This document shows, piece after piece, positions 31,575 to 36,314 of a DNA stretch of 64,000 nucleotides. A program made the position numbers and the translations under genes. Position 1 is the stretch's first letter; each line of letters opens with the position of its first letter. The notes beneath the pieces are model-generated. The model was given only the letters and a program-made list of their open reading frames with translations, did no database searches and was not told the DNA's origin. The stretch comes from Caulobacter sp. (lineage in GTDB: Bacteria; Pseudomonadota; Alphaproteobacteria; Caulobacterales; Caulobacteraceae): contig NZ_OZ257139.1 in assembly GCF_965279145.1 (NCBI RefSeq), forward strand, positions 4,011,571 to 4,075,570, in the 5' to 3' direction.

Positions 31575-32402
31575 CTAGCCCTTCTTGGCGTAATAGGTCT
31601 CGGCCTCGCCCGGGAAGGTGCGCGCCTTGACGTCGTCGGCGTATTCGCGGGCGGCGCGTTCGATCTCGCCCTTCAGATTGGCGTAGCGACGCACGAACTT
31701 GGGCGTCCAGTCGAACAGGCCCAGCATGTCGTCGGTAACCAGGATCTGGCCGTCGCAGCCGGCCGAAGCGCCGATGCCGATGGTGGGCGGGGCGATGGCG
31801 GCGGTGATGTCGCGCGCGAGGCTCTCGGCCACGCCTTCGACCACGACCGCGAAGGCGCCCGCATCCGCGGTGCGGCGGGCCTCCTCCAGGATCAGCGCCC
31901 TGCCCGCCTCGTCCTTGCCCTTGGCCTTGAAGCCGCCGTCGACCAGCACCGCCTGGGGCCGCAGGCCGACATGGCCCATGACCGGCACGCCGCGCTGGGT
32001 CAGATATTCGATGGTCGCCGGCACGGTGGGACCGCTCTCGACCTTCACCGCCTGGGCGCCGGTCTCCTTCATGATCCGAACGGCGTTGGCGTAGGCGGCC
32101 TCGGGAGAGGCCTCGTAGGAACCGAACGGCATGTCGACCACGACCATGGCCCGGCGAGAGCCGCGCATCACCGCCTGGCCGTGCAGGATCATCATCTCCA
32201 TGGTGACCCCGACGGTGTTGGGCAGGCCATGCACGACCATGCCCACCGAGTCTCCCACCAGAAGCAGGTCGCAGGCCTCGTCCAGCGCCGCCGCGACGGG
32301 GGCGGTGTAGGCGGTGAGACAGACGATGGGCACGCCACCCTTGCGGGCGGCGATATCGGGGGCGGCGAGACGGCGAACCGTCTCCTCACGATGCGAGGAC
32401 AG
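31575..32402 (-). CDS. panB: 3-methyl-2-oxobutanoate hydroxymethyltransferase
   Basis: [34 protein letters not shown]. Frame extends upstream to a CTG at 32402 preceded by GGAG. Confidence 0.95.
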
Positions 32403-32505: not shown

Positions 32506-32886
32506 TCAGAAGTCTTCCATCATCCGCGTGACCGCGAAGCCCAGGGCCAGGAGGGCCAGCCCGGCCGCCAACCAGAGCGCCTCGACGCTGGCGGACGTGG
32601 CGGTGATCTGGTTGAAACGGGTCATGACCTTGTCAACGTCGGCGCTGATATCGCGCGTGCCGTTATGCGACAGGGTCTGCAGCTCCGCCGAAAACCGTGT
32701 CGTGACTAGCTGGAACGCCGCGATCAGGCCCGCAAGGACGCCCGCCCCGCCGATCAGCACACGCCGCATAGCCCAGCCCCGGTCGAGGCTGGCTCCAACC
32801 TGGGCGGCGAAAAGCTCGGCGTCCGGAAAGGACGGAGCCTCGCTGTAGAGTCGCGTCAACTGCGCTTCGAAATCGGGTTCAGCCAT
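32506..32886 (-). CDS. Putative membrane anti-sigma factor (module 1)
   Basis: Overlaps the sigma stop; short soluble N-terminus followed by 2 TM segments. Confidence 0.65.
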   Translation of the reverse strand: MAEPDFEAQLTRLYSEAPSFPDAELFAAQVGASLDRGWAMRRVLIGGAGVLAGLIAAFQLVTTRFSAELQTLSHNGTRDISADVDKVMTRFNQITATSASVEALWLAAGLALLALGFAVTRMMEDF

Positions 32887-33451
32887 GAGCTTCCCTCCTC
32901 GCGCCTTCCGTCTGTGGGGCCAGTCGGACCCGGAGTTTATCCAAACCACGTTTGACATGGGATTTCACCGTGCCGATCGGGATGTTCAAGGCCTCGGCGA
33001 CCTCGGCATGCGACCAGTCACCCCCATAGCAAAGGGATACGCAGAGCCGCTCGCCCCTCGACAGGGCCTTCAGGGCCTCGTCCAGATCGATGCGATTGGC
33101 GGTCCGAGGTTCATTCAGAGCCGTGGGATCGTCGCCATCCTGGGCCTCGTCGGTAAAGATCACGCGAGCTTCCCGCTTGACCTTGCGCAGGTAGAGCCGC
33201 GCCGCGATCCGCTTGATCCAGCCCCCGAAGGCGCCTTCGCCGCGATAGTCGGCCACCTGCTCGAACCCGGCCAGGAAGGCGTCCTGGGCGACATCGTCGG
33301 CCGTGGCCGAGTCCGCGCCCATCCGGCGCAACAGCCCCCGGATCGCCGAGCCGTGACGCCGGACCAGTTCGCCATAGGCGCGCCGGTCGCCCGCCGCGGC
33401 AAGGGCGGCCAGCTCGACATCGTGGCCTGTTGGCAGGCGGTCCATGGACAT
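32879..33451 (-). CDS. ECF RNA polymerase sigma factor (module 1)
   Basis: Region 2 (DDVAQDAFL..WIKRIA) and region 4 (EVAEALNIPIGTVKSHVKRG). Start placed at ATG 33451. Confidence 0.93.
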   Translation of the reverse strand: MSMDRLPTGHDVELAALAAAGDRRAYGELVRRHGSAIRGLLRRMGADSATADDVAQDAFLAGFEQVADYRGEGAFGGWIKRIAARLYLRKVKREARVIFTDEAQDGDDPTALNEPRTANRIDLDEALKALSRGERLCVSLCYGGDWSHAEVAEALNIPIGTVKSHVKRGLDKLRVRLAPQTEGARREAHG

Positions 33452-33479
33452 GCTTTCCCCCTTCCCCAAGGTCCAGCGA

Positions 33480-33863
33480 TCAGACGCGCTTGGCTTTGTT
33501 GGGGTTGAAGAAGCTGAGAACGATATAGGCCAGGCCGATCACGGCCGGGATGCAGGCGATGCCGATGCCTGGCGAATGGAAGTCGTTGTCGCCAAAGTCG
33601 ACGAAGTAGCTGAACGCGGCCAGGCCTATGCCGATCGCCAGCCAGATCACGCCGGCCCGCATGTCGCTCAGCGACGTGGGAGCCACCTTCACGTTGCGGG
33701 TCAGGGCCTCGATCACTTCGGGCGGAACGGGCTGTCCCTTGTCGATCGCGGCGCGCAGGGTCGACTGCATCTCGATGCGCTCGCGGCTCTTCAGATACAC
33801 CGGCACGATGCAGATCGCACCGATGACCAGAAACATGATGATAGGGATCCAGACCTCATCCAT
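33480..33863 (-). CDS. DUF6249-like membrane protein
   Basis: TM, then RAAIDKGQPVPPEV, then 2 TM. Family name recalled from motif, not searched. Confidence 0.7.
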   Translation of the reverse strand: MDEVWIPIIMFLVIGAICIVPVYLKSRERIEMQSTLRAAIDKGQPVPPEVIEALTRNVKVAPTSLSDMRAGVIWLAIGIGLAAFSYFVDFGDNDFHSPGIGIACIPAVIGLAYIVLSFFNPNKAKRV

Positions 33864-33929
33864 GGCGACATTCCTCTTGCGGGGCGCTGTCCACTCAGCG
33901 CCGCATTCTGATGATAAGAGGCGCCGGGA

Positions 33930-33958
33930 CCTTCGTTTGGAGGCGCCCGGCGGGATGA
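33930..33958 (-). promoter_or_regulatory. Putative ECF promoter P1 (TCATCC-N17-CGAAGG)
   Basis: Same -35 core and spacing as the sites at 35252 and 35530; lies upstream of module 1. Confidence 0.55.
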
Positions 33959-33971
33959 AACTTTCGTAACC

Positions 33972-34262
33972 CTAGTCCTGGGACAGCAACCGGCCGCCCA
34001 TCACCGCCAGGGCCAGTATGACGACCAGCATGCCAACGGCTGGCAGCAGCGTGGGCGCAAGGGTGTCGACGGCTAGGTTCAGGACCGGCGAACAGGCCCA
34101 AAGAACCACACTCAGCACCAGGGCGGCGGCGGCGGCGGCCAACAGGCGGTCAAGGAACGCGCGACGCTCCACGGCTTCCATGACCTCGGCCACGAAGACA
34201 TCGGTCGTGGCGGGCGGGGGCGTTTCCCCCAGAAAGGCGGACAAGCGATCATCGGGCGTCAT
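33972..34262 (-). CDS. Putative membrane anti-sigma factor (module 2)
   Basis: Overlaps the sigma stop; MTPDDRLSAFL..FVAEVM, then 2 TM. Confidence 0.65.
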   Translation of the reverse strand: MTPDDRLSAFLGETPPPATTDVFVAEVMEAVERRAFLDRLLAAAAAALVLSVVLWACSPVLNLAVDTLAPTLLPAVGMLVVILALAVMGGRLLSQD

Positions 34263-34774
34263 GACGGTTCTCCCAGGACGACGAGCAGTCTCTCACGGCC
34301 ACGCGTCACATGCGACTTCACAGTGCCCAGCGGCAGACCCAGGGCCTGAGCGACCTCGGCGTGGGTCCAGGCCTGGCCCAGGCACAGGGTGACACAGGCG
34401 CGCTGGTCTTCCGGCAGGGTATCCAGGGCGGCCTGAAGGGCCATCCGATCCTCCCCGGCGACGGTATCCGGCGCTTCCAGGGCTTCCTGGCCGCGCCAGT
34501 CTTCGTCGCGACGGGCCGAACGGCTGGCGGCGCGACGGTGGTCCAGCGCCTTGCGCCAGGCGATGCCATAAAGCCAGGCGCGAAAGCCATCGTCGGCGCG
34601 AAGCCGCCCCAGGCTCGTCCAGGCCGCGACGAAGGCGTCCTGGGCGATGTCATCGGCGTCGATCCAGCCGCTCTTCCGCAGAAACCCCCGCAGGGGCTTC
34701 TCGTGGATCGCGACCAGTCGTGAAAACGCCGCCTGGGATCCCCCCCGCGCCGCCCTGACGAGCGGCGCATCCAT
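34259..34774 (-). CDS. ECF RNA polymerase sigma factor (module 2)
   Basis: DDIAQDAFV..WLYGIAW; EVAQALGLPLGTVKSHVTRG. Confidence 0.92.
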   Translation of the reverse strand: MDAPLVRAARGGSQAAFSRLVAIHEKPLRGFLRKSGWIDADDIAQDAFVAAWTSLGRLRADDGFRAWLYGIAWRKALDHRRAASRSARRDEDWRGQEALEAPDTVAGEDRMALQAALDTLPEDQRACVTLCLGQAWTHAEVAQALGLPLGTVKSHVTRGRERLLVVLGEPS

Positions 34775-35199
34775 CAGACCTTGGGACCCCGGCTGAGAAC
34801 CAGCGACACCAGCGAGGCCAGGCTCAGCGCGCCCATCACGAAGGCCACGATCGTAAAGGCGTCGCCCGAGCCGTAGATGTCAGTGAAGGCCGCATAGCTG
34901 AAACCGGCGCAGAGGGCGCCGAACAGGACGACCCTGTAGACCGGGTCGCCGCTGTAGCGATAACCGCGATAGCGACGCCGGCGCGGCCGATCATCGTAGT
35001 CATAGTCATCTTCATTCCAGCGCTTGTTCAACCGAGCCACCAGCTCCGGCGGGGGCTCACGCCCACTGGCCGCGTAGGACTTGATCAGGTCCAGCGTGTC
35101 GCGATTGGCCTTGTAGGAGAGCCAGCTCTGAAAGCCGCCGAACACGAACCAGCTCAGCGGAAAGATCAGCCACCAGTACGAACGAAACAGGTCTTCCAT
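34774..35199 (-). CDS. Membrane protein, distant DUF6249-like homologue
   Basis: TM, then SGREPPPEL, then 2 TM. TGATG coupling to the sigma gene. Confidence 0.7.
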   Translation of the reverse strand: MEDLFRSYWWLIFPLSWFVFGGFQSWLSYKANRDTLDLIKSYAASGREPPPELVARLNKRWNEDDYDYDDRPRRRRYRGYRYSGDPVYRVVLFGALCAGFSYAAFTDIYGSGDAFTIVAFVMGALSLASLVSLVLSRGPKV

Positions 35200-35251
35200 C
35201 GAATTTGGCCCCTTGTGGGTCTGCGCGCACTTGCGCGTCGGTCTCGGTGAG

Positions 35252-35280
35252 TAGTCGCCGCCGCGGATGCGATTGGATGC
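35252..35280 (-). promoter_or_regulatory. Putative ECF promoter P2 (GCATCC-N17-CGACTA)
   Basis: Both hexamers and the spacing are identical to the site at 35530-35558. Confidence 0.65.
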
Positions 35281-35301
35281 GGACGGCGGAATTATTTCGG
35301 T

Positions 35302-35484
35302 CTAGCGCCGGCCCAGCCTGGCGATCAGTTCCGCCGGCGGCTCGCGGCCATTGCTGGCAAAAGTCCGCAGAACATCGGCGGCGTCGCGATCGGCGCAATA
35401 GGACAGCCAGTTGCGCCACGCGCCGATCACGATCCAGCTCGTCGGAAACACCAGCCACCAGAATGAGGAAAACAGATCTTCCAC
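35302..35484 (-). CDS. 60-aa truncated paralogue of the 34774-35199 protein
   Basis: MEDLFSSFWWLVFPTSW..NGREPPAELIARL aligns with MEDLFRSYWWLIFPLSW..SGREPPPELVARL. GGAGGG SD upstream. Confidence 0.7.
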   Translation of the reverse strand: MEDLFSSFWWLVFPTSWIVIGAWRNWLSYCADRDAADVLRTFASNGREPPAELIARLGRR

Positions 35485-35528
35485 GACAATCCCTCCAGCG
35501 AACGCGAGCCTCTCGCGCCTTCTGAAGA

Positions 35529-36194
35529 CTAGTCGGCGCCGACAGGCGTCCTGGATGCGACCAGGTGGGAAATAATTTCGGACGGCGATTCAAACACGAT
35601 GGTCGGGTGGTGCTCAGCCAGGATCGAACGCTTGGCCGCGCCCCAGGTGACGGCGCCGCTGGCCAGACCCAGTGCGCGGGCGGCCTCGATGTCGCGGGTC
35701 TCGTCGCCGATGCAGATCACCCTGTCGCGCGAGACAACGGCGGTGACCTTCCGGAACTTGCGCGCCTTGCCAAACAGCGAGGCGCCGCAGGCGAACTGAC
35801 TGATCAGGCTCGACAGGTCCGGCCCCAGCACGGCGCGGATGGTGCGCTCGCTGTTGGAGCTGACCACCGCCAGACGCAGACCCGCGTCGTGCAGGGCCCG
35901 CAACATGCCCTCGGTCTCGGGAAACAGCGGAATGGAGTCGCTGTCGGCCGCCATCAGCTTCTTGCCATGGGCGGCGATCATCGGAAGCTTCCACGGCGAG
36001 ATGCCCAGATAGCGGATGACCTCGCGCGTGGCGCGTCCGCGCAGCATGTCGATCTCGTCGTCGGTGACGGTCTTGAAGCCGAACCGGCGCGCCATCGGAT
36101 TGACGGCGCGGATCATCCAGGCCGCGCTGTCGGCCAGCGTGCCGTCGAAGTCAAAGATGACCATGTCATACGACGGGATGGGATGGGCTCCCAC
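35529..36194 (-). CDS. HAD family hydrolase (phosphoglycolate phosphatase-like)
   Basis: IFDFDGTLADS, VSSN, K, IGDETRD motifs. Start uncertain (GTG 36194 or ATG 36164). Confidence 0.88.
   Translation of the reverse strand: MGAHPIPSYDMVIFDFDGTLADSAAWMIRAVNPMARRFGFKTVTDDEIDMLRGRATREVIRYLGISPWKLPMIAAHGKKLMAADSDSIPLFPETEGMLRALHDAGLRLAVVSSNSERTIRAVLGPDLSSLISQFACGASLFGKARKFRKVTAVVSRDRVICIGDETRDIEAARALGLASGAVTWGAAKRSILAEHHPTIVFESPSEIISHLVASRTPVGAD
35530..35558 (-). promoter_or_regulatory. Putative ECF promoter P3 (GCATCC-N17-CGACTA)
   Basis: Copy of P2; overlaps the 3' end of the HAD gene. Confidence 0.65.
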
Positions 36195-36314
36195 GCGATG
36201 GTTTCCTGCGCTCTTCGTGTTCAAATGGACGAGACTAGTCGCAATAGCCCTGCTCGCCCCTGCTTGTCGCCCTAAAGTCGGCCGACTCGCGCTTTCAGCA
36301 AAGCTGCTAGGCCT

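Follow-up and report, generated by a model that had tools for sequence, protein, structure and literature searches.

Among described membrane-signalling operons, the closest in plan to the locus considered here are RpoE-RseA of Escherichia coli and SigW-RsiW of Bacillus subtilis, in which a two-domain extracytoplasmic function (ECF) sigma factor is co-transcribed with a downstream membrane protein, with overlapping stop and start codons, in a stress-induced operon whose promoter has the ECF geometry of a -35 hexamer, 17 nucleotides, a -10 hexamer and a start 7 nucleotides later. The present analysis concerns two adjacent three-gene units of this general type on the minus strand of a 64,000-nucleotide stretch of a Caulobacter sp. 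genome (GCF_965279145.1, contig NZ_OZ257139.1, positions 4,011,571 to 4,075,570; the whole stretch is referred to as the window, and its own numbering is used unless stated otherwise), each composed of a DUF6249-type membrane protein, an ECF sigma factor and a putative anti-sigma factor. These units depart from the RpoE-RseA/SigW-RsiW type in having short anti-sigma candidates without a described domain, a -10 hexamer (CCTCTT) without the common CGT core, and a DUF6249-type gene in the lead. Three-part ECF units are also known from B. subtilis, where SigM-YhdL-YhdK and SigY-YxlC-YxlD each have a small multi-pass membrane protein beside the sigma and anti-sigma factors; this accessory protein (YhdK or YxlD) is encoded downstream, does not belong to DUF6249 and acts as a negative co-regulator, whereas the accessory gene in Caulobacter leads the operon and is the one of DUF6249 type. 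Two paralogous ECF sigma factors within one Caulobacter genome likewise have a precedent in SigT and SigU of C. crescentus (general stress response; GGAAC-N16-CGTT), which are encoded at separate loci, use a single type of promoter and act in a cascade; the pair described here consists of direct neighbours that have come to differ in their -10 elements.

Two further comparisons are closer in sequence. The promoter Pecf18_up1700, activated by ECF34_1384 (Rhodius et al., 2013; PMC3817407), has TGCATCC at -35 to -29, a 17-nucleotide spacer ending in GGCGGCG and the -10 GTAATG; it shares with our locus the TGCATCC-type -35 and the spacer length, and the PLGTVKSH recognition helix of ECF34_1384 is the same in both sigma factors here, but the -10 differs, and the partners of ECF18/19-type sigma factors are RskA-like whereas RskA is not matched here. 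In Bacteroidota, clusters of an ECF sigma factor with DUF5056 and DUF6249 (the clsB neighbourhood of Bacteroides fragilis, bioRxiv 10.1101/2025.05.12.653583, and PG1662 of Porphyromonas gingivalis) similarly place DUF6249 beside an ECF sigma factor and a small membrane partner; those clusters are known from annotation alone, they belong to another phylum, arrange the genes differently and have a partner of another family (DUF5056), and no duplication has been described there. Against this background the design is that of an ordinary autoregulated ECF unit and constitutes no new category of system. A preceding sequence-only reading of this stretch, which had proposed an undescribed system, was too strong in this respect: what lies here is an uncharacterised form of the ordinary type of autoregulated ECF sigma/anti-sigma operon, and the DUF6249-sigma neighbourhood is already present in annotations. 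What sets it apart is the DUF6249 lead gene, together with anti-sigma candidates that are very short and unclassified, a -10 without the usual CGT, and the divergence of adjacent paralogues at the -10. We consider it likely that the locus consists of two paralogous, separately autoregulated ECF operons derived from an old tandem duplication, each with its own ECF-type promoter and DUF6249-type lead, whose -10 elements have diverged.

Promoters, sigma factors and duplication history

Flanked by a HAD phosphatase gene on one side and panB on the other, seven minus-strand open reading frames (ORFs) follow one another in the order short2, lead2, sigma-2, anti-sigma-2 (module 2), then lead1 (DUF6249), sigma-1 and anti-sigma-1 (module 1), with stop/start overlaps inside each module (Table 1). 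The ORFs and their domains bear out the arrangement recognized in the sequence-only reading, namely two co-oriented modules of lead, sigma and (putative) anti-sigma genes, and support the view that the two ECF circuits are paralogous and that a DUF6249-type membrane protein heads each of them.

The promoters of both modules can be placed with respect to experimentally mapped starts. Global 5' rapid amplification of cDNA ends in C. crescentus NA1000 (Zhou et al., 2015; PMC4287350) identified primary starts at 1846571 (CCNA_01716) and 1848095 (CCNA_03893, a newly called gene), as well as internal starts at 1847684 and 1849049. Three promoter strings printed in the tables of that study were found in the orthologous C. 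vibrioides locus (L063) at one constant offset, and the same offset was confirmed by eight gene coordinates from an independent paper, all of which fall in frame. The short2 orthologue corresponds to the annotated CCNA_01716, that of lead2 to CCNA_01717 and that of lead1 to CCNA_03893, whose primary start is a strong one. Transcription of module 2 begins at the G of GAAAG, placing GCATCC at -35 to -30 and CGACTA at -12 to -7, and that of module 1 at the G of GAAGG, placing GCCTCC at -35 to -30 and CCTCTT at -12 to -7. Both module-2 boxes (GCATCC-N17-CGACTA) had been correctly located from sequence, the motif being near-invariant in relatives and matched by the C. crescentus start, which falls 7 nucleotides past CGACTA as had been expected.

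Conservation among relatives follows the same registers. In 30 instances preceding the first module-2 gene, an invariant GCATCC is followed by an 11-nucleotide variable stretch, GGCGG-CGA(C/T)(T/C)A and a conserved (T/C)GAA(A/G), and in a second set of 80 loci, collected via lead1, GCATCC-N17-CGAC(T/C)(A/T) is present in 51 of the 52 that contain the tandem. The lead2-proximal copy of this promoter receives the top score in the genome (34.2 bits) with a matrix built from orthologues. For module 1, TTAC(G/A)AA-N4-TCAT-N10-GC(A/C)TC(C/T)-N17-CCTCT(T/A/C) is found in 78 of the 80 lead1 loci, and the core GCCTCC-N17-CCTCTT occurs once in the window against 0.12 matches expected. At the position of the TTACGAA-N4-TCAT block the promoters of module 2 and of DUF5694 (the latter described below) are A/T-rich as well, so that the block may represent an UP-like element or a site for an activator. 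The proposal of one -35 combined with different -10 elements thus holds for the -10 elements and, nearly, for the -35 elements, which differ in this genome by a single base (GCATCC vs. GCCTCC).

Both sigma factors consist of regions 2 and 4 alone (Sigma70_r2 with Sigma70_r4 in sigma-1 or r4_2 in sigma-2), reach 80.8 and 86.9 bits against TIGR02937 (86.9 for sigma-2; cut-off 42.9) and are 41% identical to each other. The region-4 helix-turn-helix is identical between the two sigma families, and region 2 carries family-specific residues, a combination that fits a shared -35 with different -10 elements. Comparison with 41 library sigma factors does not discriminate between ECF groups: the best match of sigma-1 is ECF34_1384 (80 bits), nearly tied with ECF14 and ECF01, and that of sigma-2 is ECF02 (74 bits, with 69 bits for ECF34), so that overall 80 and 69 bits to ECF34_1384 stand against 74-77 bits to ECF14, ECF01 and ECF02; BLAST against PDB is equally non-discriminating. 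The -35 characteristic of ECF18, ECF19 and ECF34, (T)GCATCC or CCTCC, corresponds to the GCATCC/GCCTCC found here at -35 to -30 (compare Pecf18_up1700 and Pecf19_up1315). ECF29, which is defined by a C-terminal extension of ~30 amino acids with an RCE/D motif, the absence of an anti-sigma factor and the promoter GGGAAC/GCATCCAA (motif: PMC6180224), does not fit, both sigma factors ending just after region 4, with membrane partners following and GCATCC at -35. Across loci L053 to L132, a GCCTCC(AAAC) -35 is always paired with a sigma-1 whose region 4 has the form W-SH...N-I-P-I-G, and GCATCC with (L/V/M)-SH...x-P-L-G; this pairing stems from one clade, hence from one event, and is no more than suggestive of a co-change of sigma factor and promoter.

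Lead1 matches PF19762 (DUF6249) with 51.9 bits (E 8.1e-14; cut-off 33 bits) and is the sole match above cut-off in the genome; lead2 and short2 have no Pfam match and stay below the gathering threshold of PF19762, and BLASTP detects no similarity between lead1 and lead2 (E = 9). Profile-to-profile alignment of the two families (hhalign) nevertheless spans their full length (96.7% probability, E 3.9e-10, 110 columns), with the GxxPPE motif in register. The shared transmembrane (TM) helix and G(R/Q)xxPPE(L/V) motif noticed in the sequence-only reading are indeed present (GQPVPPEV in lead1, GREPPPEL in lead2), with GREPPAEL in short2. These comparisons support lead2 and short2 as divergent relatives of DUF6249, although the Pfam threshold does not admit them as members. 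Short2 shares 58% identity with residues 1-60 of lead2, and an ORF of 59-63 amino acids at its position is kept at the protein level in many genera. The anti-sigma families align over the N-terminal 50 residues only (hhalign 81%, E 1.2e-5).

Of the 121 Caulobacteraceae genomes sampled, 44 (from 11 of 27 genera) contain a relative of lead2, and most of the 30 fetched loci (11 genera) have the order [short2]-lead2-sigma-2-anti-2-lead1-sigma-1(-anti-1). Beside the 52 tandem loci, 27 of the 80 lead1 loci, mostly from Brevundimonas, contain lead1-sigma-1-anti-1 alone with the module-1 promoter intact, and a genome-wide search of five such module-1-only genomes found no lead2 relative. Across 401 Alphaproteobacteria DUF6249 is patchy (15 genomes), and an ECF sigma gene lies directly downstream on the same strand at 10 of the 12 DUF6249 loci outside Caulobacteraceae; annotations in Bacteroides and Porphyromonas show the same neighbourhood. 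Because this pairing recurs in other Alphaproteobacteria and in those annotations, the three-gene unit is widespread, and the tandem goes back to an old duplication in Caulobacteraceae and their close kin. A profile search of a large protein collection returned only close relatives. The C. crescentus locus tags of these modules were not mentioned in any of the paper texts searched. DUF6249, which comprises thousands of proteins with no known role, is firmly tied by this locus to an ECF sigma factor and, via the C. crescentus data, to a defined start site and an inducing condition (copper in minimal medium), which opens its function to direct tests in a laboratory organism.

Table 1. Features of the two-module locus and its neighbours (window coordinates).
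Feature	Position	Strand	Description
short2 promoter	35530-35558	-	-35 GCATCC 35558-35553; 17-nucleotide spacer ending GGCGC; -10 CGACTA 35535-35530; predicted start ~35523
lead2 promoter (second copy)	35252-35280	-	-35 GCATCC 35280-35275; -10 CGACTA 35257-35252; predicted start ~35245
Module-1 promoter	33916-33944	-	-35 GCCTCC 33944-33939; 17-nucleotide spacer; -10 CCTCTT 33921-33916; predicted start ~33909
Upstream element TTACGAA-N4-TCAT	33955-33969	-	A/T-rich; about -60 to -46 of module-1 promoter; spacing and sequence fixed in 78/80 loci, including loci without module 2
short2	35302-35484	-	60 amino acids; GTG start, GGAGGG Shine-Dalgarno; one TM helix and GREPPAEL; paralogue of lead2 N-terminal half
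lead2	34774-35199	-	141 amino acids; 3 TM; cytoplasmic GREPPPEL; disordered charged linker; divergent DUF6249 relative
sigma-2	34259-34774	-	ECF sigma factor, 171 amino acids; start overlaps lead2 stop
anti-sigma-2 (putative)	33972-34262	-	96 amino acids; cytoplasmic N-terminus of ~35 amino acids and 2 TM; ATGA overlap with sigma-2
lead1	33480-33863	-	DUF6249 protein, 127 amino acids; 3 TM helices; cytoplasmic GQPVPPEV
sigma-1	32879-33469	-	ECF sigma factor; 196 amino acids from TTG 33469; ATG 33451/33445 also possible starts
anti-sigma-1 (putative)	32506-32886	-	126 amino acids from ATG 32886; cytoplasmic N-terminus, TM, periplasmic segment of ~50 amino acids, TM; overlaps sigma-1 stop
HAD phosphatase gene	35529-36224		upstream neighbour of module 2
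panB	31575-32333		downstream neighbour; 172-nucleotide gap to 32506

Proposed role of the DUF6249-type proteins

In the proposed working of the locus, each module would be transcribed as a unit encoding a DUF6249-type protein with three TM helices, an ECF sigma factor and a short membrane anti-sigma factor, module 2 being preceded by a 60-amino-acid half-copy of its lead. At rest the anti-sigma factor would keep the sigma factor at the membrane, and stress (for module 1 in C. crescentus, copper in minimal medium) would free it to boost its own operon from the GC(A/C)TCC/17 nucleotides/CGACTA or CCTCTT promoter in a self-amplifying loop. A common -35-reading helix (P-L/I-G-T-V-K-S-H) would recognize GC(A/C)TCC in both modules, and the differing sigma-2 domains and -10 elements would keep the two loops apart. 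The DUF6249 protein, as the product of the first and best-expressed gene, would be a stress-induced inner-membrane output acting through its conserved cytoplasmic GxxPPE helix.

Structural predictions give the two leads a common plan. Their AlphaFold2 models, of moderate confidence (predicted local distance difference test values, pLDDT, of 72 for lead1 and 69 for lead2), begin with a long helix in which TM1 extends beyond the membrane into the cytoplasm; the helix is interrupted at GxxPP, and a second, short one leads over a linker, which in lead2 is disordered, to TM2 and TM3. In the sequences, the basic residues that follow TM1 and those at the C-terminal end place in the cytoplasm the GxxPPE motif, whose near-invariant residues in the DUF6249 lead are G43, P47 and E49. 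Since no module-2 promoter was detected outside its own operon, its DUF6249-type proteins, short2 and lead2, are the only candidate output of module 2 and the only non-regulatory products detected for it, and we give an about even chance to their being stress-induced membrane effectors and the main output of the circuits, an option favoured over that of a co-regulator.

The latter, which we regard as possible though clearly less probable, would make the DUF6249 leads obligatory regulatory partners, with the helix-GxxPPE-helix and the short anti-sigma N-terminus together holding or releasing the sigma factor in the manner of YhdK and YxlD, which support anti-sigma factors in B. subtilis. The near-invariance of G43, P47 and E49 suggests a specific protein partner, the anti-sigma candidates offer only ~35-50 cytoplasmic residues for a sigma contact, and DUF6249 stands directly upstream of an ECF sigma gene in most of the other alphaproteobacterial loci (10/12) and in the Bacteroides annotations; on the other hand, module 2 would then be left with no detectable output, and a fold comparison of the lead1 model against PDB (Foldseek) found nothing below E 0.4. 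A more specific version, to which we attach a rather low probability, would have the anti-sigma factor split in two, with DUF6249 supplying the missing half: the cytoplasmic helix-GxxPPE-helix and the very short N-terminus of the downstream membrane protein would clamp the sigma factor between them, and short2 would tune the clamp. If true, the DUF6249-linked ECF family of several phyla would use an undescribed three-protein membrane switch.

The anti-sigma role itself is assigned to the two downstream membrane proteins from their position, the overlap with the sigma genes and their predicted membrane topology; neither sequence contains a Cys/His zinc motif (HxxxCxxC). The internal starts mapped in C. 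crescentus are weak (L063:3536 and L063:4901) and lie inside the region-4 coding sequence of both sigma genes, near the GTVKSH codons and just upstream of the anti-sigma gene; the homologous places in the window are ~34300 in sigma-2 and ~32960 in sigma-1. Such starts could provide sigma-independent basal expression of the anti-sigma factors.

Induction, proposed separation and candidate targets of the modules

The copper transcriptome of NA1000 (PMC8224329) provides a view of both modules under one stress. In stalked cells in minimal medium, the orthologues of sigma-1 (CCNA_01721) and anti-sigma-1 (CCNA_01722) rise by 5.4 and 4.6 log2 units (false discovery rate, FDR, <=1e-16), and in swarmers by 3.2 and 3.0 (FDR <=1.6e-10). 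Copper thus induces module 1 ~40-fold, and the four module-2 genes are unchanged; since module 2 stays flat while module 1 rises, module 1 is stress-inducible and does not activate module 2. Of the earlier suggestion that the circuits are either insulated or cascaded, the first alternative holds in the direction from module 1 to module 2, and the reverse direction falls outside what the copper data show. In the same data set panB, downstream of module 1, rises by 2.8 log2 units, which suggests read-through out of the C. crescentus sigma operon; no terminator-like site was found after anti-sigma-1 in the window.

A one-way coupling, in which activation of sigma-2 would also raise module 1 through read-through or weak use of the shared -35, is an alternative to full separation that we regard as possible but rather unlikely. 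It gains from the lack of a terminator-like site between anti-sigma-2 and lead1, the near-identical -35 hexamers and identical sigma-4 helix, the strictly conserved tandem order, and the panB co-induction as an instance of read-through at this locus in C. crescentus. It loses from the strong start site that module 1 has of its own and from the occurrence and function of module 1 without module 2 in other genera; the flat response of module 2 to copper excludes only the direction from module 1 to module 2.

A genome scan for both motifs, as had been suggested, gave different results for the two modules. With the module-2 matrix from orthologues, no site of the 4.48-Mb genome other than the operon's own two exceeds 30 bits, the next ones scoring ~20 bits and being intragenic. 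The module-1 matrix revealed an additional site of 25.6 bits (GCCTCC-N17-CCTCTA), 20-60 nucleotides before a secreted DUF5694 gene (genome 2886098-2887210). The orthologues of this gene from three relatives retain GCCTC(C/T)-N17-CCTCTA around a spacer whose sequence varies, and in genome G069 the DUF5694 site is GCATCC-N17-CCTCAT, the same unusual pair as in the G069 lead1 promoter. Because the two G069 promoters co-vary, one factor appears to read both, and in the window genome sigma-1 probably also drives the secreted DUF5694 gene; DUF5694 was not found in C. vibrioides. Exact module-1-type sites elsewhere in the genome precede a DEAD-box RNA helicase gene and two others; the GCCTCC-N17-CCTCTT at the helicase gene (G000:C1:3775912, minus strand, outside the window) lies ~150 nucleotides upstream and is possibly a further sigma-1 target or a chance match.

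Several points weigh against the reading of two separately autoregulated operons. The start-site and expression data come from C. crescentus and not from the window strain, and the second promoter copy, before lead2, is confined to the window and its two closest relatives and has a predicted start only. Which sigma factor reads which promoter is deduced from adjacency, from module 1 working alone and from the copper data. Neither of the anti-sigma candidates has a match in Pfam or NCBIfam or to a known anti-sigma domain (ASD/zf-HC2, RskA), and the case for DUF6249 proteins as effectors is one of argument only. Since weak targets can escape a matrix scan, the conclusion that module 2 regulates only itself is provisional, and the absence of a terminator between the modules makes read-through from module 2 into module 1 possible. 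If two separate operons are indeed present, they offer a natural case of paralogous sigma factors with one -35 reader and diverged -10 elements, illustrating how duplicated ECF circuits become independent, as well as a potential source of orthogonal promoter/sigma pairs.

Other promoter placements and minor features

Two other placements of the promoter elements can be set aside as very improbable. In the first, GCATCC would be an ECF29-like -10 (GGGAAC/GCATCCAA), the -35 being TTACGAA in module 1 or the A/T-rich stretch in module 2 and the downstream blocks forming RNA structure in the 5' untranslated region; the ECF29 motif reported in Sinorhizobium meliloti (PMC6180224), the fixed TTACGAA-N18-GCATCC spacing in module 1 and the partial complementarity of the CCTCTT block to the sequence just downstream speak for it, but module 2 lacks a fixed element upstream of GCATCC, and the sigma factors lack the ECF29 C-terminal extension and are accompanied by anti-sigma candidates. 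The assignment of GCATCC/GCCTCC to the -35 follows from the Pecf18_up1700 precedent, with TGCATCC at -35, from the DUF5694 promoter, which keeps both hexamers without TTACGAA, and, decisively, from the mapped starts, which put these hexamers at -35 and lie ~30 nucleotides downstream of GCATCC. A conserved RNA hairpin involving CCTCTT was likewise considered and dropped, as the block lies upstream of the start.

The second placement, equally improbable, is that of the sequence-only reading, in which TCATCC-N17-CGAAGG (33958-33930) would drive module 1 from a CATCC -35 identical to that of module 2, with the two circuits separated only by CGAA vs. CGAC. All three CATCC-N17-CGA strings on which it drew are literally present where reported, and a CGAA-type -10 is known in other ECF groups (Pecf19_up1315). 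The minimal pattern, however, occurs five times in the window against 5.06 expected, and because this frequency equals expectation its occurrences prove nothing alone. CGAAGG falls within the variable spacer and is not kept even in the nearest relatives (CGCCTG, CGGATG, CGAGAC), and TCATCC forms the end of a distinct block further upstream, at -51 to -46 of the actual promoter. The module-1 box had thus been misplaced: the conserved promoter is 14 nucleotides downstream, as is the mapped C. crescentus start relative to the position predicted from that box, and the discriminating -10 elements are CCTCTT for module 1 and CGACTA for module 2.

Some minor features of the promoters may be added. 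The short2 promoter is contained entirely in the 3'-terminal codons of the HAD phosphatase gene, and its A/T-rich upstream element is partly constrained as coding sequence (SEIIS). The module-1 -10 hexamer CCTCTT (33916-33921) is complementary to the lead1 Shine-Dalgarno sequence AAGAGG (33873-33880); in a read-through transcript from module 2, CCTCTT/AAGAGG pairing could mask lead1 translation, and the hexamer is absent from the sigma-1 transcript. In L093, the nearest relative, from a metagenome-assembled genome whose lead1 is 98% identical, the module-1 promoter reads GCGCCTC-AAAC...GCCCTCTT, one base short in the -35 and with one extra base before the -10, and these indels may reflect an assembly error rather than biology.

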